Source: an uncultured Verrucomicrobiales bacterium | Lineage (GTDB): Bacteria > Verrucomicrobiota > Verrucomicrobiia > JADLBR01 | Direction of reading: 5' to 3' | DNA: 64,000 nt | Assembly: GCA_964651705.1 (NCBI GenBank) | Contig: CAZYWZ010000014.1 | Location: forward strand, 9,743 to 73,742 | Shown: piece by piece, positions 1 through 20,496 of the stretch | How the letters are laid out: each line of letters starts with the position of its first letter | Position numbering within the stretch: position 1 is the stretch's first letter | Notes under the pieces: generated by a model | Database searches by the model: none | What the model was told of the DNA's origin: nothing | The model's input: the letters and a program-made list of their open reading frames with translations, nothing else | Made by a program: the position numbers and the translations under genes

Positions 1-178
1 GCGATTCCTTGAGCGATACCGCGTGCGGCTTGCGGTGGAAGACGCCCAGGTCGAGCGCCAGCATCGCCAGCACAAACAGGGTGAAGCCTATCCAGATCCA
101 GGGTGTTCCAATCGTTTCCATGGGGCATGCGGGAGGCGTGCCGCGCCACATCGTGGACGGCAATCAGGTCGATGCGGA

Positions 179-2125
179 TCAGGAGGCCGGGATGAGCCTC
201 TCGTAATCCTCAAGCTTCCCGCCATCCAGGCAGCAGGTGATGATCTGTCTTCCAAGCGGATCGAGGTCGGGGTCGCAAAAATCCTCGAGGCACTTGTGGA
301 AAAACGCCCGGAGGATCTCCGCGCCCTGGTCGTAGGCAACTTCTCCCACCTCCGGCTGCGTGTCCACCTGGAGAAACCAGCGTGTGATCATGCGTCCTTC
401 CACCTGCAGCTGATGCAGCGTGTGGCCGAGCAGCGGGCAACGCGCGGGTCGCAGCTGGTCGGGGCGGAACTTCGCCACGCCGCGCCGGGCGAGATATTCG
501 CGCGCGATCCACTGGGGCATGAAGCCCACCCGCCAGGCGCCCACGTGCTGGTTGGGGCAAAGGATGTGGCGCATCCGGGTGTTCTCCGCGAACTGCCGGA
601 GCAGCAGGTTGGCTTGATCCACGCGCCGACCCGTCGCGAACGGCCAGTAGGAGCCAACGCCTTCGCTGGTCATGCCCTCGGTCTCCACGATGCTCGGATT
701 GGCGTGGCCGCGCGGTGAGACCAGTCGCCACAGCCAGGCCAGCGATGGCGGCAGAATGTGAAAGACGCCCATGATGCCGTAGGTGGGTTTCTCCTTGGTG
801 CAGGGGGGAGTGCGCACGCCGAAACTGCGGATGTCCACCGTGACCGCCCCCTCCACCACGCCGGGAAAGACCTTGCGCGGGATGATGAGGCGAGGATTCG
901 GACAGGGTCTGCCAGGCGCATCCTCGATGTGCTCCCAGACCAGCGCCCGGCTGCCTGGGACGGCATCAATGCTGAGAAACAGCAGCGGCACGGGCGGTTC
1001 GGCGGCCAGCTTCTCCAGGTGCACGTCGGTGCCGTAGTGCTCGAGATGATTGACGCGGACGAACCAGGCATTCTCCGCGTCGGTCAGCGTGAGCTTGCCT
1101 TTGCCGTCCTGCAACGAAGGGTGACACAGGGCCATGTCATCCGTCACGGCGTGCAGCTCGCAGCTGCGCGGGATTTCCAGGTAACGTTTCTCGCCGGTGA
1201 CCAGATTCTCGCCCAGCAGGAGGCGTCCATCCGGCTCGCGATGCGCCTGCTCCAGCATCTCGCTCTTGCCGCCACCGCTCGCGCCCTCGTGCATGATGGT
1301 CACGACGTTGTCGTAGGGCGTGATGACCTGGACGGTGGAGCAATGGTTCGTGACCCAACCCTCGCGTTCGCCCAGCCCGAGGAGGACGCCGTAGATCCCT
1401 TTCTTGGCGCTTGGCCCAGGGTAGAGGTTGTAAGAGAACAGTTCGTGCAGGCCGTTGCGGCGATTGTGCACGACCACCTGTTTGCCATCGAAGTGCGTGT
1501 GGCGGAAGACCGGCGCCACGTATATGATCGCGCGCGGCACGAAGCTCGGCGGGATCTCGTCGTAGGGGATGATGCCCTGCAACATGGCCAGGCCGAGCGC
1601 GAAGAAGCCGGCGTTGGCGGGTGCGATCACGAGGGCGTCCATGCCCAGGCCCGCGCCCCCGGCCACGAAGCCGAACATCGCGAGCTCCTGGCCCCTGAGC
1701 CACTCGAAGGTCTGCAGCCGCAGCGGCGCGAATTCCGCCCCGAAGCGCGGCAGGAAGGCGTCCTTGTCGGTGGGCAGGTCGTCGCCGATCACCATGCAGT
1801 CCGGGTCGCGGCGGCGCATGTAGGGCTCGATGTAGTTGGCGGCGACGCCATTGCGCACGCGGGCGACGGTGGCTTCGAGCACTCTTCCCTTGCCCGGCAC
1901 GTCGTAGGCGACTTCGGAGAAATCCGATTTGGGCCCACCGCAGGCCAGGTCGACGAGTTCATCCGTCGTGCTTGCGATGGAAAGCCGCTTGCAGTGGGTG
2001 AGGATCTCGGCGGCTTCGCCGGGGGGATGATATTTTTGCCAGTTCATCGTGGTGGATATTCCGTCAGGTTCTCGTTGGGGAGCGGTATGCAATTCATCGT
2101 CCTCGGCCGGCGGGGCGGCGGTCAC
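179..2125 (-). CDS. HprK-like P-loop domain protein, DUF4914-like, function unknown
   Basis: 648-aa ORF. Walker A GASGGGKSE matches the HPr kinase/phosphorylase C-terminal P-loop (GxSGxGKSE) and is followed by a VTDDMA motif. Its start overlaps the hpf stop by 4 nt (2122-2125). An alternative start MNWQKY lies at 2047. Confidence 0.6.
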   Translation of the reverse strand: MTAAPPAEDDELHTAPQREPDGISTTMNWQKYHPPGEAAEILTHCKRLSIASTTDELVDLACGGPKSDFSEVAYDVPGKGRVLEATVARVRNGVAANYIEPYMRRRDPDCMVIGDDLPTDKDAFLPRFGAEFAPLRLQTFEWLRGQELAMFGFVAGGAGLGMDALVIAPANAGFFALGLAMLQGIIPYDEIPPSFVPRAIIYVAPVFRHTHFDGKQVVVHNRRNGLHELFSYNLYPGPSAKKGIYGVLLGLGEREGWVTNHCSTVQVITPYDNVVTIMHEGASGGGKSEMLEQAHREPDGRLLLGENLVTGEKRYLEIPRSCELHAVTDDMALCHPSLQDGKGKLTLTDAENAWFVRVNHLEHYGTDVHLEKLAAEPPVPLLFLSIDAVPGSRALVWEHIEDAPGRPCPNPRLIIPRKVFPGVVEGAVTVDIRSFGVRTPPCTKEKPTYGIMGVFHILPPSLAWLWRLVSPRGHANPSIVETEGMTSEGVGSYWPFATGRRVDQANLLLRQFAENTRMRHILCPNQHVGAWRVGFMPQWIAREYLARRGVAKFRPDQLRPARCPLLGHTLHQLQVEGRMITRWFLQVDTQPEVGEVAYDQGAEILRAFFHKCLEDFCDPDLDPLGRQIITCCLDGGKLEDYERLIPAS

Positions 2126-2463
2126 TTCGTCCTGCGACCGGTTGGGCGGCGGGTGCTCGCCTGGCCTCTCTGGCGGGAGGCCTTCCGGCTCCGGCGTTGC
2201 TCGATCTGTTCCCGGAGGCGGGCCACCACCTTTTGCCAGGCGGCTGGCCAGGTGTGGTCGCGGGCAGCGGCACGGACGTCTGGGCCAGATACCGCCAGCA
2301 TGGCCACCGCCTCGAAGGCCGGCGTCATCTCGCGCTCGTGTCGCAGCCCGACCTGGGCGGAGGCCACGTCCAACAGGCGGTCGAGGGTCCGCAGATCGGC
2401 CTCCACCTGCCGCCGCAACCCGTCGTCGTCTCTCATCCCTCGGATCTGAAATTGGATGTCCAT
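2122..2463 (-). CDS. hpf: ribosome hibernation promoting factor / RaiA(YfiA)-like, short form
   Basis: 113 aa from the internal Met (MDIQFQIRG...). N-terminal beta-alpha pattern and C-terminal WQKVVARLREQIEQRR resemble the HPF/YfiA family. The ORF-track start at 2577 gives a 38-aa Arg-rich extension that I reject. Confidence 0.5.
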   Translation of the reverse strand: MDIQFQIRGMRDDDGLRRQVEADLRTLDRLLDVASAQVGLRHEREMTPAFEAVAMLAVSGPDVRAAARDHTWPAAWQKVVARLREQIEQRRSRKASRQRGQASTRRPTGRRTK

Positions 2464-2577
2464 GAAATCGGCTGGCTCAGGTTTGGTGCTCCTTCTCGGG
2501 CGCGGTATTCTCGGGGTGACCTCGTTGTCCCGAGTGCACCACCGCCCCATTCTGGCGCGCTGGGCCAGTTTAGCCAA

Positions 2578-2592
2578 ATACGATTAAGGTAT
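2578..2592. promoter_or_regulatory. dyad ATACgattaagGTAT (T-N11-A LysR-type box) in the hpf/nhaR divergent promoter
   Basis: AT-rich 50-nt divergent intergenic region. A perfect 4-nt inverted repeat with 7-nt spacer sits 36 nt upstream of the nhaR-like ATG. A second TAATACGAT half-site is at ~2612-2620. Confidence 0.3.
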
Positions 2593-2627
2593 TGTAACTT
2601 TAGCTAGAACCTAATACGATATGCGGC

Positions 2628-3518
2628 ATGGAATTCTTGAATTACCATCATCTGCGGTATTTCTGGGTCGCGGCCAAAGAGGGCGGGCTAACCCGCGCCG
2701 CCGCCAAGCTGCACGTCTCGCAGCCGAGCATCTGCACGCAGATCCAGGCCCTCGAGGGCTCGCTGGGCGAAAAATTGTTGCGGCGGACATCGCGCGGCCT
2801 GGCCCTGACCGAGGCTGGCCAGACGGTGTTCAGCTTTGCCGAGGGGATCTTCTCCCTCGGCGAGGATCTCCTGAGCACCATGAAGCAGCGCCCCACCACG
2901 CGTCCCTTGCGCGTCCACATCGGCATCGCCGATTCGGTGCCGAAGCTTCTCACCTACGGGATGCTCAAGCCGATTTTCCGCCTCCCCCAATCCGTCCAAG
3001 CTTCCTGCCGTGAGGGAAAAGTGCCCGACCTGCTCGCCCAGCTGGCGACCTATCGCCTCGATATCGTGCTGTCGGACGAGCCGGCGCCCGCCTCGGGAAA
3101 CCTCAAGACGTTCAACCATCTCTTGGTGGAATGCGGCGTCTCCTTCTGCGCCGAACCGAAACTGGCGGCTCGCCTCAGGCGCCGCTTTCCCGCCTCCCTG
3201 CATGACGCCCCGGCGCTGTTGCCCAGCGCGAGCGCGGCCCTGAGACGGTCATTGGAAAAATGGTTTCAGGAGCATCGGATTTCACCCCGCCTGATTGCGG
3301 AGTTTGACGATGCCGCCCTGATGAAAGTGGCCGCCTCCGATGGCCTGGGGTTTTTCGCGGTTCCCAGCCTGGTTGCCAACGAGGCGGTGACCCGCTACGG
3401 CCTCAAAATCATCGGGCACGCCCCCCGTTGCAGCCAGAAGTTCTATGCCATCAGCGCGGAGCGGCGGCTCACCCACCCGGCGGTGGTGGCCATCACGGCC
3501 CATGCGCAGGACGGATAG
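2628..3518 (+). CDS. nhaR: LysR-family transcriptional regulator, NhaR-like
   Basis: N-terminal HTH MEFLNYHHLRYFWVAAKEGGLTRAAAKLHVSQPS aligns to NhaR NYNHLYYFW. C-terminal EFDDAALMKVAA and YAISAERRLTHPAV match NhaR EFDDAALMKAFG / HAIFAERMIQHPAV. Confidence 0.8.
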   Translation: MEFLNYHHLRYFWVAAKEGGLTRAAAKLHVSQPSICTQIQALEGSLGEKLLRRTSRGLALTEAGQTVFSFAEGIFSLGEDLLSTMKQRPTTRPLRVHIGIADSVPKLLTYGMLKPIFRLPQSVQASCREGKVPDLLAQLATYRLDIVLSDEPAPASGNLKTFNHLLVECGVSFCAEPKLAARLRRRFPASLHDAPALLPSASAALRRSLEKWFQEHRISPRLIAEFDDAALMKVAASDGLGFFAVPSLVANEAVTRYGLKIIGHAPRCSQKFYAISAERRLTHPAVVAITAHAQDG

Positions 3519-3682
3519 GAATCCCATCGGGAGGCGCCGCGGGCGGCCGCGGGCCTTTTGCCACGCCTTCCACGCCTGGACCTTTCCGCGGCCGGCGAGC
3601 CCGCGGCTGTAGGCCATCCACTAGTCGGTCTGCCCGCAGGCGAGCAGGTAGGCCTTCAGGCGTTTCCGGTGGCGCGCGGGCT

Positions 3683-3744
3683 GCCGCGTGAACGCGGCAC
3701 TACGAGCGGGGAAAGGTTTGTAGTGACGCCTTCAGGCGTTCCGG
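3683..3744 (+). repeat. REP element, family R1, left copy (two hairpins GCCGCGtgaaCGCGGC and ACGCCttcaGGCGT)
   Basis: 62-nt sequence repeated at 4421-4482 with ~90% identity in the same orientation. The two copies flank the RAYT gene. Confidence 0.8.
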
Positions 3745-3793
3745 CGGCAGGGTTTCGGCTGTTTTCTTGTTGGCGATATGGCAGGGTTGAGGC

Positions 3794-4414
3794 GTGCGGG
3801 ATAGGGGATATCGGTGGCGAGGCATGTCCTCCGGAGAACGGGCGGAAGTGGTAGCGTTGCGAAAGGCTCGCCGGTGGCCATGGCATGCGCCCCCACACGG
3901 GAGCTTCAAGAACGGGGGGCACTTTCATTTAACGGCGGCCTGTTTCGAGCACCGGGCGCACATCGGGCACTCCATCGAACGAATGGAGGATTTTGCGGGC
4001 GGGCTGTTGCGTGCCGTGGCCGAAGGCGGAGGGCAGGCGTTGGCCTGGTGCGTGCTGCCGAACCATTATCACGCGCTGGTCGATGCCGGTGTGCTGCGGC
4101 ATCTGCTTGACGCGCTGGGCCGATTGCATGGTCGCAGCGCTTGCGCCTGGAATCGGGAGGAGGGAATGCCGGGCCGCAAGGTTTTCTTCCGCGTGGCGGA
4201 TCGGGCGATGCGCTCGGAGCGGCACTTTCTGGCGACGCTGAACTACGTGCACCACAACCCGGTCCGCCACGGCTATGTCGCGCGCTGGACGGATTGGCCG
4301 TGGTCGAGCGCATCGGAGTATTTTTCGCGCGTGGGGTGGTCGGAGGCTGAGCGTCGTTGGCGGGAGTATCCCATCGGCGATTATGGCAGGGGCTGGGACG
4401 ACGCCGACCTGTGA
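3794..4414 (+). CDS. REP-associated tyrosine transposase (RAYT, IS200/IS605-like Y1 HUH enzyme)
   Basis: HuH motif LPNHYHALV, C-terminal catalytic-Tyr region LNYVHHNPVRHGYV, and an N-terminal WPWH..GG.FHLT block typical of RAYTs. Flanked by REP R1 copies. Confidence 0.8.
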   Translation: MRDRGYRWRGMSSGERAEVVALRKARRWPWHAPPHGSFKNGGHFHLTAACFEHRAHIGHSIERMEDFAGGLLRAVAEGGGQALAWCVLPNHYHALVDAGVLRHLLDALGRLHGRSACAWNREEGMPGRKVFFRVADRAMRSERHFLATLNYVHHNPVRHGYVARWTDWPWSSASEYFSRVGWSEAERRWREYPIGDYGRGWDDADL

Positions 4415-4420
4415 GGGCAT

Positions 4421-4482
4421 GCCGCGTGAACGCGGCACTACGAGCGGGGGAAGGTTCGTCGCGACACCTTCAGGCGTTCTGG
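4421..4482 (+). repeat. REP element, family R1, right copy
   Basis: Direct repeat of 3683-3744 starting 7 nt after the RAYT stop. Confidence 0.8.
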
Positions 4483-4501
4483 GCGAAGGCGCTGCGCGAG
4501 G

Positions 4502-6628
4502 CTACTCAGTTCTTCTGCTTCTGATCTCGTACATGCGGTATCCGACCTCGCGGATGCCGGCTATGGTCTCGGGGTAGGGGGTGTCACAGACGTCCAGGAA
4601 TCCGTTCTGGAGGTTCTCGCCGTCGAAGCGGCCGGTGGTGGGCTGCTCGCCGAATTGGTGCCAGTGGGCGCCGATGATGTTCGGGTGGCGGAGGGCCGAG
4701 GCGATGTAGGTCGCGTAGGCCCTGCCCCGCGCCTCCTGATTTTCGACTTGGATGAGGCTGGGGTGGAACATGCCGCGGTCGAGCGCGCCGAAGTGGAACT
4801 CGCCGATCATGACCGGCTTGTCCACGCCCTCGGGCAATTTGAAATCATCGAGCGTATGGCGGTACAAATTGTAGCTGATGACGTCGCAGTATTTCGCGCC
4901 GATCTGGACGGCGGCCTTCGTCGAGCCCGCGAAGCGGCAACCCATGTACAGCGTGTTGGGCGCGGCGGCCTTGAACTCGTCGCGGATGTTCTTGAAGTAC
5001 GCCTCGGTCACGGCGGCGCTGAATTCGACGCAGTCCCCCTTGGACCCCGGCGGCGGCTTCTCCTGCGATGCGAGGAGCGCTTCCCAGTCGGCGTGGAGCG
5101 ATCCCCACGCCGCGTTGAGCTTGTCGACCGCGCCGTACTTGTCCTTCAGCCGGTTGACGAATTCGATCTTCGCGGGCTGGGCCGCGGGCGATGCAAGCGT
5201 CCACTCGGCCAGCGAGGTCTCGCCGCCCCAGCTGATCTCGTTGTCGACGAAGAACCCGAAGCACCATGGGTCGTCGAGTTCCTCCTTGCGGGCCAGCAGT
5301 TGCTTTCGGAGGTTCGCGCGGAACTCGGGGTGGAAGGGATCCTTGAACTTCCACCAGCCGAGGTGGGCGCCCTCGATGTCCGGGGATCGCATCTCGAATC
5401 GGTCGCAATAGGGGGTGCGGCGCTGGAGGCAGATGGCCTTGTCGGAGCTGTTGGCGATGGTGTTCATGCCCCAGCTCCTCAGGCGCCTGTGGGCCATGTC
5501 GGCGTAGCGCGCGATCCAATCGGGGCCGTATTTGCGGAAGGCGTTCGCCGACGAGAAATCGTAGGTCCGCTGGATCCCGCGGGCCTCGTAGTAGGGCCAC
5601 AGGAGCGCGTCGCGGGTCGTGTAGAACATGGCGAATGGGGAGTCCGGCGACGGGAGGTCGGTGAAATAAAATTCTCGTTCGTCCAAGGGTGTCACGGCCG
5701 AAGACGAGGTGACGCGCACCGGGCCGTGCGACCACCAGAGGCAACCCTCGGGATCCACCATCCACCATTTGCCATCGATCTTCTCGACGCGGAAGCGGCC
5801 GGTCGCCTCCCGCTTCGGTCCCTTGGCCCAGCCGCCATATTTGTTCCACCCGTCCGGGCCGGGATGCGAGGCGAGGTCGGCGCGCTCGGCGTCGATGGCC
5901 CTCTTCAGATCCTCGTCCGAGTGCGTCTTGCCGGGCCATTCATTATGCTTGAACTGTCCGTACACATCGATGAATGGGAAGAACTCGTCGGCCGAGAGTC
6001 GCATCCACGCAGGCACTTCCGGCCACCGGTAGCCGCCGAGGTAAGGAGGCGGATTCGGCTCGGTGTGCGCCACGATCCGCTTCACGCCCCAGAGCCAGTC
6101 CAGCTTGGGCTCCTTGATATAGACCGCCACGCCGACGACCTCTGCCGGATCGAGGTCGGCGACGACCCCGGTGGTGGCGAATGGCCCGCGCTTCATTCCC
6201 GCCAGTTTGCTCGTGATCTCTCGGCCATGGGGCAACGGGGGTGGGAGCGCGATGGTGTAGCCCGCAGGAGTCTTGCCCCGGATCTTCACCCGATCGATGA
6301 AGACGCCCAGGGACTTCCCGGGATCCGCGTCGGGATTGTCGAGGCGAATCGTCAGGGGCAACTCGCCCTTCCTGTCTAGGTTCGCCAGTTCGAGCGTGAG
6401 GCGGTTGCACCGGGACAGATCCCATGATCCCCGGATGATCACGCCGGGGTAGCCGGTGTCTCCCTTGGTCGCGACCTCCAGCAGGCCGTCCTGCAAATCG
6501 AATTTTCCGCCCGAGTGCGACGCCACCGACGCGATGGGGGTTTGCGCGGCATCGAAGAGCACGATCTCATCGGCCTGCGCGGTTCCCGCAGCCAAGAGCA
6601 GCACCATCCAGCAGTTCGTTTCTTTCAT
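4502..6628 (-). CDS. secreted clan GH-A (TIM-barrel) glycoside hydrolase, GH50/GH42-like, with N-terminal beta-sandwich domain
   Basis: Signal peptide MKETNCWMVLLLAAGTAQA. FFVDNEISWGG (NE acid/base-like) and VMIGEFHFG (nucleophile-like) motifs. 708 aa. Confidence 0.6.
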   Translation of the reverse strand: MKETNCWMVLLLAAGTAQADEIVLFDAAQTPIASVASHSGGKFDLQDGLLEVATKGDTGYPGVIIRGSWDLSRCNRLTLELANLDRKGELPLTIRLDNPDADPGKSLGVFIDRVKIRGKTPAGYTIALPPPLPHGREITSKLAGMKRGPFATTGVVADLDPAEVVGVAVYIKEPKLDWLWGVKRIVAHTEPNPPPYLGGYRWPEVPAWMRLSADEFFPFIDVYGQFKHNEWPGKTHSDEDLKRAIDAERADLASHPGPDGWNKYGGWAKGPKREATGRFRVEKIDGKWWMVDPEGCLWWSHGPVRVTSSSAVTPLDEREFYFTDLPSPDSPFAMFYTTRDALLWPYYEARGIQRTYDFSSANAFRKYGPDWIARYADMAHRRLRSWGMNTIANSSDKAICLQRRTPYCDRFEMRSPDIEGAHLGWWKFKDPFHPEFRANLRKQLLARKEELDDPWCFGFFVDNEISWGGETSLAEWTLASPAAQPAKIEFVNRLKDKYGAVDKLNAAWGSLHADWEALLASQEKPPPGSKGDCVEFSAAVTEAYFKNIRDEFKAAAPNTLYMGCRFAGSTKAAVQIGAKYCDVISYNLYRHTLDDFKLPEGVDKPVMIGEFHFGALDRGMFHPSLIQVENQEARGRAYATYIASALRHPNIIGAHWHQFGEQPTTGRFDGENLQNGFLDVCDTPYPETIAGIREVGYRMYEIRSRRTE

Positions 6629-6669
6629 CTTCTGTCTCCGGTCTTCATTTTATTTTGCCATGCGAAGGG

Positions 6670-8946
6670 CTACGGCGCCTCCAGCGGCGGCGGGGGATGC
6701 ACCGGGTGGGCCGCCGGCCAGGTGGCGCGGGACTCGTTTTGGCGCAACCCGATCTGCTCGAAAGGGATTCTCTCGAACCCGATATTCCAGGCGGGCGAGT
6801 CCCCCCGAAGCTGGAAGTTGCCGGCCTTTTCATTGACGAACCTGGGGTCCACATCGACCAGGTTGTCTTCCAGTCGCACCAGATCGAGGACCTTCGCTTC
6901 GATGTGTTGCCACCACGTCGCTTCGATGGGTTTGCCTTGAGACATGCGGCGCAGATACTCGCCCTGTCCCTGCCAGAAGATGTTGCGGCGAACGATGTTG
7001 CCTTTGGGCTTTGCGGGCTCATCGTCCAGCATCGTCGCAAGCTTCGGATAACGCGTGCTGAAAGGTGGCTCTTTGAAGCGAACGCCGCAAAGCTCCCCTG
7101 TCTCTCGGGCCGTCTTGAGTCGCGGCTCCACGGCATACGCCGCCCAGCCCAAGGCGCGCGCATCCAGATGAAAGGCCCGCGGGCAATCCACGAAGACGTT
7201 GTTTTCGACGAGATTATCACGCCCTCCGCCGATAAAGACCGCCTGCATGACCTGAGAAAAGACATTGTTTCGCACCGTGGCGCCGGAAAACTCGTCGTCC
7301 AGATAGATGCCCCTGCACCAGCCGCCATCCTTGCCGCTGATATGGTGCAGGTAGTTGTATTGAAATACGTTGCCGCGCAAGCACCAGCTGCGCCCGGCGT
7401 AGATCGCGCCGCAGTCGTGCGATTCATTGCAGACATTGTGGATCTCGTTGTATTCAAACAGATGCTCCTGGCCGCCGAACAGGATTGCGGCGTGGGGGGC
7501 GTCGTGGATCAGGTTGTGTGACGCGCGGAGGCCCACGCCGCTCATGAAAATCCCCGGCCGATACATTCGATCCCAGCGGCCATAGTGATGGATGTGGTTG
7601 TTCTCGGCAAAATGGCCGCCCGGCTCGAGCGTCTTTCTGTCGCCTCCGATGAGGTAGATCCCGCCGCCGCCCATGCCGTGCATGTCGCAGCCGACGACAC
7701 CGTTCTCCTTGCCTTCGAAGATGGTGACGGCGTGGTTGCCCAGATTGCGGAACGTGCAGGCGACAAGGCGGCATCGTTGGCCGCCGGTAATGGTGATTGC
7801 CGTCCCGCGCGCGGCCTCCATCAGCAGGCCGTGAATCGTGACGTGCGACGCGTCTGTCATCGTGAAGAGGCCCGGCGCCATCGAGACCTCGACCCGCGCG
7901 CGTTCGATGGGCCCCGGAGGCCAGAGGTAGAGGATTCCCGCCGCGCGGTCGATATACCATTCGCCGGGCGCGTCGATTTCGCAGAGGAGATTGAATCCGC
8001 GGAACCACTGGCCCTTCCGGTAGCCGTAATAGTGGTACGGTGGCTCGACGGAGATGATCCGCTTCTCTGGATCGATGGATGCGATCTTGTGGCGCTGTGT
8101 GGCCCAGTCGCGGAACCAGTATCCGCGGACCCACGCGTCCTTCTCGCCCAGCCACCGCCTGGGCCGGTCGCCCTCGTAGACGAACACACCCTCCTTGCAG
8201 CCCTTGGTGCCACGGACATCGATCTCCGTCTTGCCCAGCACCTCTTGAATCTTGATGAAGTCGTCGTTCGGCCAGCGCGACAGCGTCATCGGCTGGTCGT
8301 TGAAGAAGACCTCCAGTCGCGGCTTGACTGTCTTGCCCGCACTGGCGTGTGCGCTCCCAATCATGTCCTCGGCCTGATTGTCGACCTTTGCCAGCCACAA
8401 CTGGAGCTCCGCCGCGGCGTCCAGGCCGAGGTCGCCATATTCTGTCACGCCCAGCGCGCGCAGATCGGCTTGAAACACCTTGCCGCGCGCAGGCGGATCC
8501 AGACGGCTGAGGGTGGCTGGCTCGGTGACGGGGCTCCATCCACCCACGATTCGCCCTCCACTGATGTGGACCGCGTCGCCCCGTCTCGCGCGATAGATGA
8601 TGGGGGAGTCAGCGGTTCCGGAATCTTCCGCAGTCAGTGCGACGGGCTTCGAGAGCTCATATCTGCCGGCCAGAATCTCCACGACGATGCCGCCTCTCGG
8701 CAGGCCGCCATTCGCCTTGATCCGGCGGATTTCATCGCGGGCGCGCTCGATCGTGGCGAACGGCCCGTCGGTCTTTCCGGTGTTCGGTTCCGCCGCATTG
8801 CCGGACCACGCGTCGTCGCCATCCGCGGCCACGTAAATGATCGCGCCTGGATGTTCCTCGGGCGCCGCATCTCGGTCGGCGGGCGCACAGGCGGCGATCG
8901 CCGCCAGCAGGGTTGCAGACAATGCCGTTCGCAGATCGTCCCTCAT
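6670..8946 (-). CDS. secreted right-handed parallel beta-helix repeat protein (pectin-lyase fold), putative polysaccharide lyase/hydrolase
   Basis: Lipoprotein-like signal (LLAAIAAC). Repeated NxxxHD/NN[VI]F beta-helix turns. Paralog of 23856-26252 with shared blocks NHIHHYG/NHIHHLG and HDAPHAAILFGG/HDAPYSGIIGGG. Confidence 0.65.
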   Translation of the reverse strand: MRDDLRTALSATLLAAIAACAPADRDAAPEEHPGAIIYVAADGDDAWSGNAAEPNTGKTDGPFATIERARDEIRRIKANGGLPRGGIVVEILAGRYELSKPVALTAEDSGTADSPIIYRARRGDAVHISGGRIVGGWSPVTEPATLSRLDPPARGKVFQADLRALGVTEYGDLGLDAAAELQLWLAKVDNQAEDMIGSAHASAGKTVKPRLEVFFNDQPMTLSRWPNDDFIKIQEVLGKTEIDVRGTKGCKEGVFVYEGDRPRRWLGEKDAWVRGYWFRDWATQRHKIASIDPEKRIISVEPPYHYYGYRKGQWFRGFNLLCEIDAPGEWYIDRAAGILYLWPPGPIERARVEVSMAPGLFTMTDASHVTIHGLLMEAARGTAITITGGQRCRLVACTFRNLGNHAVTIFEGKENGVVGCDMHGMGGGGIYLIGGDRKTLEPGGHFAENNHIHHYGRWDRMYRPGIFMSGVGLRASHNLIHDAPHAAILFGGQEHLFEYNEIHNVCNESHDCGAIYAGRSWCLRGNVFQYNYLHHISGKDGGWCRGIYLDDEFSGATVRNNVFSQVMQAVFIGGGRDNLVENNVFVDCPRAFHLDARALGWAAYAVEPRLKTARETGELCGVRFKEPPFSTRYPKLATMLDDEPAKPKGNIVRRNIFWQGQGEYLRRMSQGKPIEATWWQHIEAKVLDLVRLEDNLVDVDPRFVNEKAGNFQLRGDSPAWNIGFERIPFEQIGLRQNESRATWPAAHPVHPPPPLEAP

Positions 8947-8971
8947 GTTCTCCTTTTCCTCTCTGGTGGTG

Positions 8972-11200
8972 TCATGATCCGTCGTGAGTAGGGCGCGGTG
9001 GTCTCCGCTTCCAGATGACCAGCCGGACGCTCTGGGCGGGAAGGGCGGCTAACGCCTCGACGTCTCCATGTTCCGGATCCGACGCGGACACCAGGTCGGC
9101 ATCGGGCGCGCTCAGCGAAAACGGCGCTGCCTTTTCGCCGGGGTTCCAGACCAATACCGCGAGCCGGTCGCCTGCCGCGAAACCTTTGGCGACGAGTCCC
9201 TCGCCGCGGAAGGCAAAACCTTCTTCGTCAACGAATCGCCCGTGCCAGAGCAGGTCGGCGTTGGCGCGCTGGAATTCGATCATCTGCCTGAGGTATCGGG
9301 TCGCCTCTTCCGGGGGGACGGATTGCATCAGCGCGATGTTGGGTTTGCTGATGACCTCGGCGTATTCCTCGGCATCGGGCACGATGTCTTCCCTCAGATA
9401 GCGCACGTCCGGCGCATAGCGCGACTCGATCTCGAAGCGGAAGCCGTAGGCGCACGTGTAGTTGGCCATCGCGCGACCCATCATCGGGGTGGGCATCCGG
9501 ATCGTGCTCATCGCCTCGGGGAACGTGTACCGGAACATCTCGGGGAATGCCGGTGCGGCGGAGGCGCCGCTGAGGCGCGTCAGGATCTCTCCCGGCGACG
9601 CCTCGAAGGTGCCAAAGGTGCAGCCGTGGAACATCGCGATCGAATCCAGGACGCTGTCGTGCAGCCCTTCGGTCATCACGATGAAGTCGGGATCGATCGC
9701 CCGCATGTGGTCCGCGATCCTCCGTATGAAGCGGACCCGGTCGGACGCGTAGACCATCGATGGGACGGGGTGCCCATGCCCCTGGGCGTAGCACGGCATC
9801 GGTTCGTAGATGCCGAGCTGGTCGTAGAGAATGCCGTCGGCCCCGAGGTCATCGGCCTGGACGGCAAGCTCCAGCATGCGGTCATACCATCCCTGTGTCA
9901 TCAGGCAGCCGAGGCCGAAATGGCGCGGGGGCGCGTTCCGGTATTTGTGGTAAGTCAATTGCGTGGGCGCACCATCGCGCCCGATGACGGTCAGGTCCTT
10001 GCCGCGCGTCTCCCAGAATTCCGTCCCGATCTCCTGGAGTTGGCCGTTTGCGTACAGGATCGTTTTCTTGCCACGATGTCGCGCCTCCTTGAGCGCCTTG
10101 CGGAGCGCGTCCGCACCGCCCATCTCGGGGTCGGGTATGTAGTCGGGGTAGAGGTGGTCGTGGCCGCCGTGGGCCCAGCCGAACAGCCCGAGGATATCAA
10201 GGCCTCTTGCGTCGGCCACATCACAGAGTTTCCCCAACGAGTGGTAGTCCCAGAGAACCTCGCCGTTCTGCTGCTTGAGAATGCAGAGCAGCCAGCCCGA
10301 GGCGTCCCGGGCCCAGGCCGGCGGATCGATCGGTCGCGCGACCGTGTCGGCCCAGGCGCGGTAGTGACGGGCCGCCGCGTGCCACGTCCCCTCGTAGGGC
10401 AATATCAAGGTCGGCGGCAGAGACCAGCGCCCGCCTGTCGGGCAGAAGATCTGGTGTTTCAGCGCCATGCCAAAGGTGTTGTCCGACGGGTCGTGGCGAA
10501 CACGGAGCGATTTTGCGCTGTGCGTCGCGTCGTGGCAGCCCAGATAGAGGCCGCCCTGTTTTCCGGCGAACGCGCACCACTGCATGGTCCCGCGGCGGCT
10601 GGGGTAGTCGGCCGAGATTTCGAAACCGCGACCCCACGCTTTCCAGGGCGCAGTTTTGCCCGCGGTGGGCGCGCGATCGAGCCGGCGACCGAATCCCTCG
10701 GGCAATAGCACGGGGTGCGCGGCCAGATCGGCCTGGATGCCATGGAGCACCGGCCCGGTGAAGCCGCAGACGACCCACCCTTTCTCGTCATTTCGGATTT
10801 CTCCCGTGATCTCGAACGCGTCGCCAGTGGGGCGGATGTCGATCGTGACCCCGATGTCCCATGTCCTCTTCCCGTCGCCGAGCGTGCCGCAGGTCAATCG
10901 GATGCCCTCCGCCATCGCGGCGCGCGTCACGGGTTGCCCCTGGTCCGTCAGGACGATCGGTTCGGCCCCCACGGGGGGTGGGGTATCTGGCTGGACCAGC
11001 ACCGCCCACAGCGGGTCGCCCTTGGCCCGGATGGCGGGGCACGCGGCGATCGCGGGCGCGAGGCCGATGCCTTGGGCATCGGCCTGGAGTTCGCCCTTCG
11101 GCCCCTTGACCCGGATCGCCTCTCCACCCTCGGTGGGCATCGACAACAGAAACCATCCCAATCCCACCACCATAGCTGTGTTTTTCGCGATCATTTGCAT
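8972..11200 (-). CDS. secreted hypothetical protein, possible glycoside-hydrolase-like TIM barrel
   Basis: 742 aa, signal peptide MQMIAKNTAMVVGLGWFLLS. Consistent codon usage within the operon. No family recognised with certainty. Confidence 0.5.
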   Translation of the reverse strand: MQMIAKNTAMVVGLGWFLLSMPTEGGEAIRVKGPKGELQADAQGIGLAPAIAACPAIRAKGDPLWAVLVQPDTPPPVGAEPIVLTDQGQPVTRAAMAEGIRLTCGTLGDGKRTWDIGVTIDIRPTGDAFEITGEIRNDEKGWVVCGFTGPVLHGIQADLAAHPVLLPEGFGRRLDRAPTAGKTAPWKAWGRGFEISADYPSRRGTMQWCAFAGKQGGLYLGCHDATHSAKSLRVRHDPSDNTFGMALKHQIFCPTGGRWSLPPTLILPYEGTWHAAARHYRAWADTVARPIDPPAWARDASGWLLCILKQQNGEVLWDYHSLGKLCDVADARGLDILGLFGWAHGGHDHLYPDYIPDPEMGGADALRKALKEARHRGKKTILYANGQLQEIGTEFWETRGKDLTVIGRDGAPTQLTYHKYRNAPPRHFGLGCLMTQGWYDRMLELAVQADDLGADGILYDQLGIYEPMPCYAQGHGHPVPSMVYASDRVRFIRRIADHMRAIDPDFIVMTEGLHDSVLDSIAMFHGCTFGTFEASPGEILTRLSGASAAPAFPEMFRYTFPEAMSTIRMPTPMMGRAMANYTCAYGFRFEIESRYAPDVRYLREDIVPDAEEYAEVISKPNIALMQSVPPEEATRYLRQMIEFQRANADLLWHGRFVDEEGFAFRGEGLVAKGFAAGDRLAVLVWNPGEKAAPFSLSAPDADLVSASDPEHGDVEALAALPAQSVRLVIWKRRPPRPTHDGS

Positions 11201-11227
11201 CCTTTCCGCATCAACAACCGGAGGCGT

Positions 11228-14200
11228 TTACTCCTTGAGCAATCCCATCCGCACCGCCCGCCAATAGGCGGCCTGGGTGTAAAAATGGCCGTAGAGAACG
11301 ACCTTCGTGTAGTCGACTTGGCCGATCATCTGCCGCACCAGCCCGAGCTGTTCTGACGACAGGGAGGGTTCGGGGAGGAGGAGCAGCGTGAGCGCCGCCT
11401 CGGCGGGTTCCCGGATCGTGCGCTCTTCCGAGATGATGGCGTCCGGCCGTGTGGGCACCTGATAGCCCCCGGAATTGCGGAGTGGCCAAGTGCGCCAATC
11501 CAGATGGATCGGCCCGGCCGCGGGGGGCCGATATTTCAGGCACCTGTCCAGGAACCCCTGGGAGCGTCCGGCCACCAGCCGCATCGCCTCGAGCCACTGC
11601 CGCTTCAATTCCGGGGAGTCCTCCAATTGATAGAGGGCTTCCAGCGAAACCTGCTCTTGCAGGAGGGCGTAGGGTACCTTCGTCGAAGCCCCCTTGGATT
11701 TCTCGGCCGCCTCGGGGCTGTATCGCCGGGCGAGTTTTTTCCAATGCCCGTCGCCGGTCATGTCCGCGCCGATCGCGTAGATCATCGGCAGGCGCGCGAT
11801 CTCGTGCGCCTCGTTCTCCCACATCTTGTCCACGATGCTATCGAAGGCGCCGGTCTCCTTCCCGATGCGGTAGCCGTTCGCCGCCACCACGTTGCGCTCG
11901 AGCCGGCGGCAGACCGCGGCGATGATCTCGCGCATCGCGGCCTTCTCTTCCGGTTGCGAGAGCGGCGAGTGGTAGTAGCGCCAGAGTCCGTAGGCGAACC
12001 ACGTGTATTGGTCGCGCGAGCTTTCGCAGTAGTGCGATTTCCCGTCGGCGGGGCTAACGCCGCGGATCACGAATCCCTTGGAAGGGCTCAGGGTTCCCAG
12101 CAGTTGCAAACCGGCGAAGACCTTGGCCGCGGATGGGCGAAGGCCGTAATCCCCGGTGGCGTCGAACCGGTCGCAGATCATCGATATCATCAACCCGCCG
12201 CTGATGGCGCAGTCCTCCATGCCGGTGCCCCAGCCGTTGGGATTGGGATATTGCCGGGCTGCCTCGTCGGGTGTCGGGAGACAGGCCAGCCGTTTCCCGG
12301 GATCGTGGCTGGAGACGTAGTCATAGAACAGGTCCGTGCGGTCGTCGTAGAAGCGGTCCCACGCGGCGCGCCATGCTTCCTCGACCTTGGCGCGGAGTTG
12401 CGCGTCGGTGAGATCGCGAGGCGTGGCGGGTGAGGCCTGCGGGGGGGGAGCCGCCTTGGATCGCGCGCCATCGACGATGTCAGCTTCTGCCTGGAAGCGC
12501 GCCTTGAGGATGAAGGAATCGCCTTCCTCGGCAACCGATGGCACGGCTGTCCTGTTGATGGAGCCAATTTCGATCAGCCGTTTCGGCACGATCACGGTCT
12601 TGTGGTGCGCCTTTTCGGGGTCGCCCGCGACGAGGGTCAGCTTCGTCATCCTCCCGCCCCCGACAACCGCGGTGGCGATCAGGCCGCCGTGGCACGCAAG
12701 CTTGAAGGAGTAATCCTTCCACGCCGCGGGCACGGCGGGCGCGATGCGGATCTCGTCCCCGCGGCTCTGCACGAGCATCTGGTTTAGCGCGTAGACCACG
12801 TTCCCCGATGCCGTCGCGAACCACGGGTGCATGGAGACTTCCTTCTCGTTGATCTCGAACATCTCCCCGAAGCAGCCCGCGCCGGATGCCGCCTCTTCGA
12901 GCAGCCGGGCCGGTTCGGTTTCATCTCCGAGCATGGCGAGCGCAGCCGCCATCCACCCCGCGTACCACGCGCAGATTGACTCGCCCACCGGATACATGTT
13001 TCCCGACGCCCGGCCGTTGGCGACAAAGTGATGGGCGGCGTTGCGTTGGAGTTCATCGTTTGCGTCAAAAAGCGGATACGGAAAGAGTCCGCCCAGCGAG
13101 GCGATGCTCTCCTCCTTGCACCCCGCGTAGGGCACATAGCGACCACCATCGTGCGGCAGCGATTCTCGCAGCTTTGCTGCGGCGCGCCTCCACGCCGGGG
13201 CCTCGGCGTCGTCGGTTTCGAGCAATGTCGCGGCGCGCGCGGCGGCCTCGAGGGTGAAGATGGCGCCACAGGATGTCATGAAAGGGTTCTGCCGCGCGGG
13301 GCCGAGGCGTTCGAGGTCGGTGCATTTGCCGATGAACATCCCGCCCTGCGGGGTCTCGTAGACCATATTGGCGAGGAAGAACCTCGCGCACTCTTTGATC
13401 ACCGGGTAGCCCGTTCCCCGGAGGTAGGATGTATCGCCCGTGTAGAGGTAATGGAGCCAGGCCGATAGCGCGATGTTCGACATGTGGAATACATGCTCCA
13501 TCCAGAAGCCGGGAGGCGTTCCCTCGGTGCCGTCTTCCAATGCCTCCCACGGATAGCGGGCGCCGTAGGTCCCCGGCTTGCCGTAGTGGCTCGCCCGGTA
13601 GAGCGCCTTCTCAAGCCCGGCGAATCGAAATTCGGGGCAACGGCGGGCGATGTCGCGGTGATTGCTGCTGATCAGGGCCTGGTAGCAGAACATCTCGTCC
13701 CACCCGAAGAACTTGCCCGCCCAATGCGTGGGGAAGATGCCGACCGGGAACGACCATTTCGTTGCGTTGGCCCGCAGGTGGTACTGCGCGGTGCAATAGA
13801 CGTTCTCCAGGCGCCGGTCGGGGATCCGCACGTGAGACTCGGCCCAGTATTTTTGCCACTCTTGCCGGTGCGAGGCCCGCATGCCGTCGAATCCCTCCTG
13901 TCGCACTCGGGATCTCAGGTGTGCCGCGCGATCCAGGTAATCGTCGCCGTCCATGGAATCCGCGAAGAGGAGGAAGAAGGTCATCTCGGTTGGGGCCGCG
14001 GCATCGAGCGCCACCTCCGCCGAGAGCCTGGCGGTCTGCCCGTCGATGGCGGCGGTGACCGGCGCGTCGGCGAAGACGGATATGATGCCGTCATAGGTGC
14101 GGTGCCCATCCACCCGGTATCGGAAATCCACGCGCTGGGGGTCGTCGCCCGGATCGGCCTTGCAGGTCGTTCGGGGCGCAACACGGTTGTCGTTCCCCGG

Positions 14201-14716
14201 CGGGGTAAACTGGTATCGGAAGGTGAGGCGGGCCGAAGTGATCGCCGGATCTTTCGCGGAGATCCGTTTTCTCACGACCACGAGGTCGTGCGACAGGTGC
14301 GTGAATACGATCGTCTCGACCGTCAGCGCCTCGCCAAAATCGTTGCGGCAGGAAACCTCGGCCTCGCGGGTGTTCAGGGTCTGCGTCCAATGGGTGGGCG
14401 TCTCTTGAGCCTTTCCACCGAAGGACAACTCATGGGCGAAGTGACCGAAGGGGACCATCTGGTCATGTCCTGGCCCAAATCGGCGCCCCTCCCACCAGAT
14501 CGCCGGCGTCATCTTGGCATAGCGGCGTTGGGCCTGGCCGCCCTGATAGTCGACGAGCATGCAGAGGCTGCCGTTGCTGACCAGCGGTGGCACATAGCCC
14601 GGCGGCAGTGCCTCGCCGCTGCCGCTAACCGCGTTCTCAAAGCTGTCGCCGACCGCAGACGCCGTTTGCACTGCCAGGCCGCACAATCCTAGCAACCAGA
14701 CAAGTCTCGTTCTCAT
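11228..14716 (-). CDS. large secreted putative glycoside hydrolase, six-hairpin/alpha-toroid-like
   Basis: 1162 aa, signal peptide MRTRLVWLLGLCGLAVQTASA. Aromatic-rich blocks typical of (alpha/alpha)6 glycosidases. Family not assigned. Confidence 0.5.
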   Translation of the reverse strand: MRTRLVWLLGLCGLAVQTASAVGDSFENAVSGSGEALPPGYVPPLVSNGSLCMLVDYQGGQAQRRYAKMTPAIWWEGRRFGPGHDQMVPFGHFAHELSFGGKAQETPTHWTQTLNTREAEVSCRNDFGEALTVETIVFTHLSHDLVVVRKRISAKDPAITSARLTFRYQFTPPGNDNRVAPRTTCKADPGDDPQRVDFRYRVDGHRTYDGIISVFADAPVTAAIDGQTARLSAEVALDAAAPTEMTFFLLFADSMDGDDYLDRAAHLRSRVRQEGFDGMRASHRQEWQKYWAESHVRIPDRRLENVYCTAQYHLRANATKWSFPVGIFPTHWAGKFFGWDEMFCYQALISSNHRDIARRCPEFRFAGLEKALYRASHYGKPGTYGARYPWEALEDGTEGTPPGFWMEHVFHMSNIALSAWLHYLYTGDTSYLRGTGYPVIKECARFFLANMVYETPQGGMFIGKCTDLERLGPARQNPFMTSCGAIFTLEAAARAATLLETDDAEAPAWRRAAAKLRESLPHDGGRYVPYAGCKEESIASLGGLFPYPLFDANDELQRNAAHHFVANGRASGNMYPVGESICAWYAGWMAAALAMLGDETEPARLLEEAASGAGCFGEMFEINEKEVSMHPWFATASGNVVYALNQMLVQSRGDEIRIAPAVPAAWKDYSFKLACHGGLIATAVVGGGRMTKLTLVAGDPEKAHHKTVIVPKRLIEIGSINRTAVPSVAEEGDSFILKARFQAEADIVDGARSKAAPPPQASPATPRDLTDAQLRAKVEEAWRAAWDRFYDDRTDLFYDYVSSHDPGKRLACLPTPDEAARQYPNPNGWGTGMEDCAISGGLMISMICDRFDATGDYGLRPSAAKVFAGLQLLGTLSPSKGFVIRGVSPADGKSHYCESSRDQYTWFAYGLWRYYHSPLSQPEEKAAMREIIAAVCRRLERNVVAANGYRIGKETGAFDSIVDKMWENEAHEIARLPMIYAIGADMTGDGHWKKLARRYSPEAAEKSKGASTKVPYALLQEQVSLEALYQLEDSPELKRQWLEAMRLVAGRSQGFLDRCLKYRPPAAGPIHLDWRTWPLRNSGGYQVPTRPDAIISEERTIREPAEAALTLLLLPEPSLSSEQLGLVRQMIGQVDYTKVVLYGHFYTQAAYWRAVRMGLLKE

Positions 14717-14723
14717 GACTGCA

Positions 14724-16805: not shown

Positions 16806-16834
16806 CCCCGTGATTTCTTGTTGGCCCGCATCCG

Positions 16835-19297: not shown

Positions 19298-20496
19298 TTG
19301 TCGCCGACGAGAACTTTGCGGAGCGCTTCGATCCTGGCGGCACCTTCCCCGTCTGGCGGCGGCAGGGCCGGCGCTAGCCAGCCGCCCTCGTCGAACTCGT
19401 TCCACGCGTAGATCAGCACCAGCTCGGCGCCGTCCGGCCCCGGATGCTTCTTGAACCACTCGACGCCGCGCCCGACGTGGGCCGCGATTTCCTGCGGGGT
19501 GCCCCGCCGGTAATAATACTGGTCGGCATCCGGCTTCAGGTGGAACGACTCCCATGAGACGGGGTTCATCACGCGGGTCCGACGGTCCCAGCCGGTCATG
19601 CAGATGGGGACCGCCGGCGTGCCCGTCTCCTCGCAGGATGCCCAGAATGCCTCCGCGTGCGCCGCCAGATCGGCGAACGGTGCCGCCTTCGCCCTTCCGT
19701 CCGACTTGGCGTAGGCGCTGAGCGCATCACCCCCGAACATGTCGCAGTACCTCTTCGCGGCCTTTGGCGAACCATCGCAGAATACCAGGTAGGGTTTTCC
19801 GAGGCCGCACGCCGCGACCTCGTTCGCAAAGGATGGCCAGGGGCCGGCGAGGACCTTGTTCGCCAGGGCGTCGTTGAAGAACCCCATGAACAAGACCGGC
19901 CGGTTTCCCCGCACCTTCAGGTAATTCGGTTCCCTGACCACGCGCAGCAGGTGCGCCCAATAGGCGCGCTCCGCGCCCTCGTCCGGCAGCCGTCCGTACG
20001 CCGGCCACATCGGCACGAAGAGCGAGAAGCGGATCTTGTCGCGGTTCCTGCACGCGAGGAACGTCTTCAGCGTGTAACTCAGCGGCGAGGCCTCAGGATA
20101 GGCGGTGAACGCCCAATAGTCCAATCCCCCGTGGACGGCATGCTCGATCTCCCGCTCGATGATCTCGGGGCGGTCGCCGTTGAAGGATTGGGCCGTTCCG
20201 TCCGCGTTTAGCGTCGTGAAGAACGGCCAGCGGTAGCGCCACGGTTCGGCGGCCAGCGATCGCTGCGTCTCCCTGCCCGGATCCTGACTCACCTTTCGGT
20301 TGCGGGTGGGATCGAATCCGGGAAACTCGACCGAGGCCGGTGGCCGTGCCGATGCGGGCAGCGTCCCATACCACGCGTCCCATCGGATGGCGCCGACCAG
20401 GGGCCGCGCCTCGTTGGTCTTTTCTGCGGCGCAAAGCGCGAAGGGCACCATTGGGTTGAGCCCCAGCACGAGGATCAGTGTCTTTGCGGCATTCAT
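19294..20496 (-). CDS. secreted (beta/alpha)8 glycosidase candidate, GH99/GH71-like, paralog of 21900-23033
   Basis: Signal MNAAKTLILVLGLN. Conserved C-terminal IYAWNEFDEGGWL (E-x-x-E) shared with the paralog (IYAWNEIGEGGWL). Confidence 0.5.
   Translation of the reverse strand: MNAAKTLILVLGLNPMVPFALCAAEKTNEARPLVGAIRWDAWYGTLPASARPPASVEFPGFDPTRNRKVSQDPGRETQRSLAAEPWRYRWPFFTTLNADGTAQSFNGDRPEIIEREIEHAVHGGLDYWAFTAYPEASPLSYTLKTFLACRNRDKIRFSLFVPMWPAYGRLPDEGAERAYWAHLLRVVREPNYLKVRGNRPVLFMGFFNDALANKVLAGPWPSFANEVAACGLGKPYLVFCDGSPKAAKRYCDMFGGDALSAYAKSDGRAKAAPFADLAAHAEAFWASCEETGTPAVPICMTGWDRRTRVMNPVSWESFHLKPDADQYYYRRGTPQEIAAHVGRGVEWFKKHPGPDGAELVLIYAWNEFDEGGWLAPALPPPDGEGAARIEALRKVLVGDK

Follow-up and report, generated by a model that had tools for sequence, protein, structure and literature searches.

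A predicted PEPCK-like DUF4914 protein encoded behind a short HPF paralogue in a LysR-headed operon of an uncultured Verrucomicrobiales bacterium

Phosphoenolpyruvate carboxykinases (PEPCKs) have a two-domain fold with an N-terminal substrate domain and a C-terminal P-loop domain. They include the ATP-dependent PckA (PF01293; E. coli and the T. cruzi structure 1ii2), the GTP-dependent PckG (PF00821 and PF17297) and a pyrophosphate (PPi)-dependent enzyme (Propionibacterium freudenreichii, 8e1u), which at ∼1,120 amino acids contains large inserted lobes. HprK/P (PF07475) has a P-loop subdomain of the same superfamily with a Walker A motif of the GxSGxGKSE type. Among LysR-family regulators, NhaR is the Na+/alkaline-responsive activator of E. 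coli. The short HPF and RaiA (YfiA) proteins share the S30AE domain and its β-α-β-β-β-α fold with RafH, a mycobacterial S30AE protein regulated by DosR (PMC3390679, PMC10799931), and extra short-HPF copies at variable loci have been reported as common in the Gracilicutes (bioRxiv 10.1101/2025.11.04.686544). Here we describe a 64,000-nucleotide stretch of DNA (the window; contig CAZYWZ010000014.1, positions 9,743 to 73,742) from an uncultured Verrucomicrobiales bacterium, in which a short HPF-type (S30AE) gene is followed by a gene of DUF4914, a catalogued and uncharacterised Pfam family (PF16260). From sequence and modelled fold, the DUF4914 protein is PEPCK-like in its whole architecture.

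The DUF4914 gene lies on the minus strand (179–2047) and encodes a 622-residue protein matching the Pfam family over its full length (1036.5 bits against a cut-off of 25.7; profile positions 4–612 of 612), a family that an earlier note on this DNA, made from the letters alone, had rightly named for a search. That note had described a 648-residue protein, translationally coupled to the S30AE gene through an ATGA overlap at 2122–2125. On the minus strand a 113-residue open reading frame (ORF; 2463–2122) is indeed followed by a long ORF that opens with a GTG at 2125 and ends with the stop at 179, and the greater length is obtained only if this GTG is the start codon, the shared bases 2125–2122 reading GTGA. 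Homologues are mostly 621–622 residues long (120 listed homologues); in an alignment of 22 sequences conservation sets in exactly at MNWQKY, the ATG at 2047, and the sequence upstream is unalignable. Three metagenomic contigs with identical genes are called as a 113-residue gene, a gap of 74 nucleotides and a 622-residue gene. In-frame stops are found in relatives, 15 nucleotides upstream of the conserved ATG in L097 and L099 (93–94% identical protein) and directly after the S30AE stop codon in L096 (98% identical). Hence the protein has 622 rather than 648 residues, the two genes are separated by a 74-nucleotide spacer (2048–2121, minus strand) that leaves no basis for translational coupling, and the overlap is an artefact of ORF calling. 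A promoter and terminator scan found no terminator-like site between the two genes on the minus strand, so that their co-transcription remains likely; the scan gave no promoter, and an Rfam scan of window positions 1–4600 gave neither a riboswitch nor a leader RNA.

Besides DUF4914, no Pfam family (including Hpr_kinase_C, PF01293 and PF00821) matches the protein at E≤0.1 and there is no NCBIfam match; its relationship to PEPCK is detectable by fold comparison and hhalign only. The 622-residue protein was modelled with AlphaFold in template-free mode (predicted local distance difference test, pLDDT, 79; predicted template-modelling score, pTM, 0.84), and in a Foldseek search of the PDB the top 50 matches of the model were all PEPCKs (E 2e-19 to 5e-17). 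The widest structural coverage was obtained with the PPi-dependent PEPCK (551 residues, TMq 0.72), to which there is no detectable sequence similarity. The model shows both PEPCK domains, the N-terminal substrate domain and the C-terminal P-loop domain. In hhalign, run in local mode with a low mact (global mode gave a meaningless terminal alignment), residues 21–608 of DUF4914 align collinearly with residues 2–539 of E. coli Pck (E 2e-4). GTP-dependent PckG is a different sequence family; EGWvtnH/EGWlaeH, the P-loop (PSACGKTN in the GTP enzyme) and vTDDMA/lGDDIA (GDDIAW) occur in the same order in the two, at a profile–profile probability of 1.8%, which is not significant.

The alignment with E. 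coli Pck pairs active-site motifs along the whole chain. The DUF4914 segment YMRRRDPDCMVIGDD pairs with FTGRSPKDKYIVRDD of Pck, which contains R65 (core RRRDP/GRSPK), NLYPGPSAKKG with TWYGGEMKKG (Y207, K212 and K213), NHCS with MHCS (H232), GASGGGKS with GLSGTGKT (K254 and T255), and PNPR with ENTR (R333). Across DUF4914 lineages that are only 29–41% identical, R78, R80, Y209, K215, K216, S257, G258, K261, D303, D304 and R386 are invariant, and H235 and S262 are conserved in ≥90% across the divergent subfamilies. The two motifs that the earlier note had picked out are present and invariant or nearly so in homologues. The first, the P-loop GASGGGKSE (residues 255–263; 1259–1285, minus strand), keeps S257, G258, K261 and E263 even in the divergent subfamilies; the second, VTDDMA (residues 301–306; 1130–1147, minus strand), contributes the putative kinase-2/metal-binding Asp pair, D303 and D304, which is invariant in all of them. 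Pairing of D303/D304 with D268/D269 of Pck is less certain than the other correspondences and is based on the GTP-PEPCK alignment and on invariance. DUF4914 thus holds the PEPCK catalytic set: a substrate arginine, Y..KK, the metal-binding histidine, the P-loop K-S/T, the Asp pair and the second arginine.

The same protein had been read in the earlier note as an HprK-like P-loop protein, twice the length of HprK and with a large unknown N-terminal domain. The superfamily was correctly recognized, being common to HprK and PEPCK, but the size is that of PEPCK, and since the invariant columns match the PEPCK motif set, the supposedly unknown domain with its conserved arginine motif corresponds to the PEPCK N-terminal substrate domain. 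The search for the HprK C-terminal domain proposed in that note yielded no Hpr_kinase_C match at E≤0.1, and the HprK architecture of ∼310 residues, with an HprK N-domain before the P-loop C-domain and HprK as best structural match, is not what DUF4914 shows. Sequence and model together thus indicate a protein that is PEPCK-like throughout and no extended HprK. It is quite probably an enzyme of the PEPCK superfamily that acts on a small molecule rather than a protein kinase, and phosphorylation of a protein by DUF4914 seems unlikely. Because the substrate arginines, Y...KK, the metal-binding histidine and Asp-Asp pair and the P-loop Lys-Ser are all kept, DUF4914 would most likely catalyse a PEPCK-type reaction; that its substrates are phosphoenolpyruvate (PEP) and oxaloacetate (OAA) themselves is an even chance at best and perhaps somewhat less.

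The first gene of the operon (2122–2463, minus strand) encodes 113 residues with an Arg/Lys-rich C-terminal tail. The assignment as a short HPF made in the earlier note was borne out at the HPF/RaiA level, Pfam Ribosomal_S30AE (PF02482) scoring 34.6 bits against a gathering score of 23.7. An AlphaFold (AF2) model (pLDDT 78) has the β-α-β-β-β-α topology, and a Foldseek search of the PDB returned an HPF, YfiA, RaiA, pY or RafH protein for each of its top 38 matches, many of them in ribosome-bound structures. The best of these is 4hei_A (E 1.5e-5, template-modelling score, TM, 0.88), and HPF/YfiA/RaiA/RafH structures as a group are matched with a Foldseek probability of 1.00 and TM 0.64–0.88. A phmmer search with approximate E. 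coli HPF and RaiA queries gave nothing useful and was not relied on. By family match and modelled fold the protein is therefore best described as a short HPF, and as a divergent paralogue. Its verrucomicrobial subfamily, with 57 clusters in 5.8 billion sequences, is small and differs from short HPF/RaiA in a signature motif of its own, the invariant GPD..AARDHTW.AAW.K...RLR, in its very basic Arg/Lys-rich tail, and in lying outside the rpoN-hpf-ptsN context. An echo of the rpoN-hpf-...-hprK cluster, which the earlier note had heard in this neighbourhood, is thus not found, and the downstream gene is no HprK relative in architecture; the absence of PTS genes nearby that it had recorded holds for the loci examined. 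The paralogue evolves much faster than its neighbour, the L001 protein being 46% identical compared with 92% for DUF4914. Like RafH, paralogues of this type are found among Usp and P-type ATPase stress genes, and the window protein fits the recently described pattern in which additional copies of short HPF are horizontally mobile and condition-specific (bioRxiv 10.1101/2025.11.04.686544).

Divergently transcribed from the S30AE gene is a gene for a 296-residue regulator (2628–3518, plus strand) with Pfam HTH_1 and LysR_substrate domains. By far its best NCBIfam match is NhaR (NF008284; 196.7 bits over the full length, the next LysR family reaching 81.7 bits). The equivalog cut-off of 219 is not reached, and the regulator is best named NhaR-like. 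It resembles NhaR further in lying divergent from its presumed target operon, in which cation transporters are frequent. In nearly all related loci the S30AE gene has an orthologue of this regulator (69–100% identity) divergently upstream. When 10 LysR/S30AE intergenic regions were aligned, from loci whose S30AE proteins are only 46–94% identical, 24 columns were invariant and clustered in the first ∼55–60 nucleotides beside the LysR start. This block (2566–2620; pattern GTATTAGGTT..CTAAAG..CAAT..CGTA.T.GGCTAAA) is a candidate operator or promoter. The third gene of the operon, of which the window edge leaves the start portion (1–121, minus strand), encodes a TerC-family membrane protein; on contigs with identical genes a 323-residue PF03741 gene follows DUF4914 after 57 nucleotides (tblastn identity 100%).

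Neighbourhoods of the HPF paralogue were surveyed through look-ups and a metagenome scan with alignment of the small protein, followed by tblastn and Pfam. The gene after S30AE is DUF4914 in 14 non-identical loci (the window, L096, L097, L099, L085, L091, L104–L106, L108, L112, L114, L001 and L009), a P-type cation ATPase in three (L087, L089 and L115), and a canonical GTP-PEPCK (PF17297 and PF00821, E 1e-163 or better) in four (L100, L101, L102 and L111). In L100 the order is S30AE, GTP-PEPCK and SAICAR synthetase, within the same frame of genes as in the DUF4914 loci L104, L106, L112 and L114; we therefore regard a known PEPCK and DUF4914 as having been swapped in situ here. Across these loci S30AE falls to 46% identity while DUF4914 stays at 87–100%, which argues that the S30AE–DUF4914 arrangement is old within the clade.

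The S30AE gene of Accumulibacter belongs to a separate betaproteobacterial subfamily (82 clusters). Betaproteobacterial cassettes begin with the divergent LysR/S30AE pair, which is followed by a ∼195-residue protein, DUF533/TerB, TerC, Usp, CBS and SulP in L117, by the same series continuing into Bax1-I and a second Usp in L118, by TerC, an ion channel and an ATPase fragment in L119, and by Bax1-I in L120; DUF4914 is absent from all four. Verrucomicrobial examples run S30AE, DUF4914, SAICAR synthetase, DUF533 and TerC (L085), or response regulators, Usp, an AMPK1_CBM protein, Usp, S30AE, ATPase and Usp (L089). Because loci of the two groups share this frame while the downstream genes vary, the conserved unit is the NhaR-like LysR gene with the leader HPF paralogue, to which variable ion-homeostasis and stress cargo is attached. 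DUF4914 or GTP-PEPCK is cargo inserted directly after the HPF gene, in Verrucomicrobia and, independently, once in Accumulibacter (L064). Where an S30AE–DUF4914 linkage exists it reflects common membership in a LysR-headed cassette; elsewhere the same S30AE gene precedes GTP-PEPCK, a P-type ATPase or TerC.

Two small proteins accompany these cassettes. A ∼108–127-residue AMPK1_CBM (glycogen-binding-module-like) protein is often encoded directly upstream of S30AE in the same operon, sometimes with Usp and response regulators (L087:4514-4840, L089:3934-4317, L091:4653-4979 and L116:376-630). The ∼195-residue protein, which has no Pfam match, is encoded after the betaproteobacterial S30AE and before DUF533/TerB and TerC (L117:6416-7003 and L118:6351-6947), and overlaps the S30AE stop in L118.

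In L006, L009, L051, L053, L055, L056, L060, L063, L071 and L111, DUF4914 or GTP-PEPCK has CO2- or bicarbonate-related genes downstream on its own strand. They encode β-carbonic anhydrase followed by TerC in L111 (the GTP-PEPCK case), carbonic anhydrase in L006, L055, L060 and L063, PurE in L051, L055, L060, L063 and L071, and the SbtA-type bicarbonate transporter in L053 (Tepidisphaerales). In L009 the series is TerC, PurK, PurE and SbtA, and in L056 (Omnitrophota) DUF4914, with a divergent LysR gene, is followed by MFS, PurC, an unknown gene, PurE, HAD and SbtA. Approximately 10 of 80 genome loci, from three phyla, have such neighbours compared with a chance expectation of ∼1, a rough estimate from loci that are phylogenetically non-independent. 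The excess is for that reason suggestive only; a CO2-using enzyme would fit it. In cyanobacteria, LysR-type regulators are known to control genes for bicarbonate uptake (PMC4390856), a parallel to this locus by analogy only.

We propose, with somewhat better than even confidence, that the locus is a LysR-driven stress operon in which the HPF paralogue, the PEPCK-like DUF4914 protein and TerC are linked by co-regulation. The NhaR-like regulator would activate the divergent operon under stress of an ion, alkaline or inorganic-carbon type, the HPF paralogue would bind the 30S decoding region and park ribosomes, and TerC would export cations. DUF4914 would carry out a PEPCK-type reaction on a small acid, with phosphoryl transfer coupled to carboxylation or decarboxylation, the leading candidate being PEP + CO2 + phosphoryl acceptor ↔ OAA + donor. 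HPF and DUF4914 would then be joined as cargo and leader of a variable LysR-headed cassette and not as enzyme and substrate.

Several observations weigh against this proposal. The sequence similarity between DUF4914 and PEPCK is marginal (hhalign probability 44–46%, E 2e-4), HMMER searches of PDB sequences with the single protein and with a 38-sequence profile returned neither a PEPCK nor an HprK, and our literature search found no paper mentioning DUF4914 or PF16260. Compared with PckA, to which Pfam and HMMER give no sequence match, DUF4914 is ∼80 residues longer, has a ∼25-residue β-hairpin insertion after the P-loop helix that is absent from PEPCKs, and contains many extra invariant Cys and His residues not found in them, so that it may use a different substrate or phosphoryl donor. 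The majority of DUF4914 genes are solitary or have unrelated neighbours, such as genes for a PocR-AraC regulator, a Mo-hydroxylase or Sua5. The HPF paralogue scores 22.6 bits with the NCBIfam HPF/YfiA equivalog TIGR00741, under the cut-off of 40.9, and its ribosome binding is consequently not assured.

One alternative is a PEPCK fold with another substrate or donor, for example a 2-oxo or enol acid, PPi or polyphosphate, or a carboxylation step linked to PurK, PurE and PurC, with GTP-PEPCK sharing the slot merely through C1/C4 metabolism. The extra Cys/His residues and the insertion, the coverage by the PPi-dependent enzyme, and the recurrence of DUF4914 beside PurC, PurE, PurK and a CofE-like ligase would all be compatible with it. 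So would the conservation of the family, which is extreme and unusual for a redundant PEPCK. DUF4914 occurs in Verrucomicrobiota, Chloroflexota, Planctomycetota, Hydrogenedentota and some Proteobacteria with 63–92% identity between phyla (72–92% for Verrucomicrobia compared with Chloroflexota); its >8000 homologous clusters at 90% collapse to only 719 at 50%, many of them fragments, and the divergent full-length lineages are few. We nevertheless regard this alternative as unlikely: every PEP/OAA- and Mn-binding residue of ATP-PEPCK is kept and invariant in DUF4914, and GTP-PEPCK replaces it in situ between the same flanking genes.

Seen from DUF4914, the association with HPF is rare. A scan of one genome per species gave at least 598 DUF4914 loci, of which the best 80 were examined and the gene could be placed in 77. 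An S30AE gene lies immediately upstream in 4 of these 77 (the window, its close relatives L001 and L009, and Accumulibacter L064), and the linkage for which the earlier note had proposed a co-occurrence check is therefore not general. The verrucomicrobial S30AE profile is too narrow for other S30AE genes, and the L064 case was found from upstream ORFs and confirmed with Pfam (42.9 bits). The relatives L005–L007, whose DUF4914 is 85–91% identical, have no upstream S30AE, and in L007 the LysR gene abuts DUF4914 directly. Adjacency through a chance landing in one verrucomicrobial lineage, subsequently inherited and without functional meaning, would account for such a distribution, in which three of four cases are close relatives and DUF4914 neighbourhoods are otherwise very variable. 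It is made improbable by the persistence of the arrangement while S30AE diverges to 46% identity, by the second, independent insertion at the same position in Accumulibacter, beside an S30AE of another subfamily and with a sister locus (L119) free of DUF4914, and by the four loci in which GTP-PEPCK takes the same slot. An HprK-like kinase/phosphorylase translationally coupled to HPF, acting on HPF, HPr or another protein and so controlling hibernation, is very improbable, given the missing Hpr_kinase_C match, the invariant PEPCK small-substrate motifs in the N-terminal domain, the unreal codon overlap, the 73 of 77 DUF4914 loci without an S30AE neighbour, and the S30AE genes that elsewhere precede GTP-PEPCK or transporters. 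A kinase acting on HPF was considered, rejected on the same points, and is largely refuted. The observations of the earlier note were thus partly confirmed and its interpretation, a kinase linked to hibernation or stress, partly supported: the gene context is stress-related, but there is no support for a kinase with HPF or HPr as its substrate, and the HprK reading is rejected together with the translational coupling.

Other DUF4914 loci have recurrent neighbours of their own. The most frequent immediate neighbour outside the S30AE clade is a divergent PocR-sensor/AraC-type regulator (8–10 loci, for example L063:227-1342; 8 of 109 neighbours scanned). In other proteins, PocR domains are sensors of small diols or of hydrocarbon derivatives, and the regulator may hint at the inducer of DUF4914. 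A xanthine-dehydrogenase/aldehyde-oxidase-type molybdoenzyme with a [2Fe-2S] domain is encoded beside DUF4914 in several loci of Anaerolineae and in one of Thiotrichaceae, in most cases immediately upstream and in the same orientation (L022:1313-4345, L017, L025, L080 and L014:7944-10088). A conserved ∼290–320-residue protein without a Pfam match is encoded directly downstream on the same strand, with slight overlap, in five verrucomicrobial or planctomycete loci (L079:6788-7762, L052:6788-7738, L063:4891-5772, L053:5254-6135 and L076:6788-8029). In L001 the CofE-like gene (7948-8760), of the F420-0:γ-glutamyl-ligase family (PF01996), separates DUF4914 from the SAICAR-synthetase gene; at the corresponding site in L085 it has apparently decayed into fragments (7352-7604).

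On the far side of the LysR gene the window contains a gene resembling REP-associated tyrosine transposases (RAYT; 3794–4414, plus strand; NCBIfam NF047646, 71.8 bits, just below the cut-off of 80), bracketed by a 70-nucleotide direct repeat (3682–3751 and 4420–4489, 87% identical); the whole resembles a REP/RAYT unit that has inserted beside the regulator. It is followed on the minus strand (4502–19555) by large ORFs of 708, 758, 742, 1162, 708 and 906 residues, the first of which has no NCBIfam match; relatives have pectate-lyase and glycosidase genes at the equivalent position.

As far as the literature searched shows, the assignment of DUF4914 to the PEPCK class with a conserved active site and its in-situ swap with GTP-PEPCK are new. 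We tentatively suggest, at less than even confidence, that DUF4914 is a fourth, unrecognized PEPCK sequence class, or a close analogue with a different donor, and that in some lineages it forms, with a dedicated HPF, carbonic anhydrase, SbtA and PurK/E/C, a module under NhaR-like control that would couple ribosome hibernation to anaplerosis dependent on CO2/bicarbonate when cells face ion, alkaline or inorganic-carbon stress. If DUF4914 is no PEPCK, the locus would reduce to an ordinary stress operon that includes a domain of unknown function. The LysR and short-HPF leader cassette provides a tidy case in which condition-specific paralogues of a hibernation factor are tied to ion and stress regulons. 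The active site, the GTP-PEPCK swap and the carbonic anhydrase and bicarbonate-transporter neighbours give DUF4914 a concrete, testable function at the PEP–pyruvate–oxaloacetate node which, if true, would affect how the metabolism of many uncultured Verrucomicrobiota, Chloroflexota and Planctomycetota is reconstructed.

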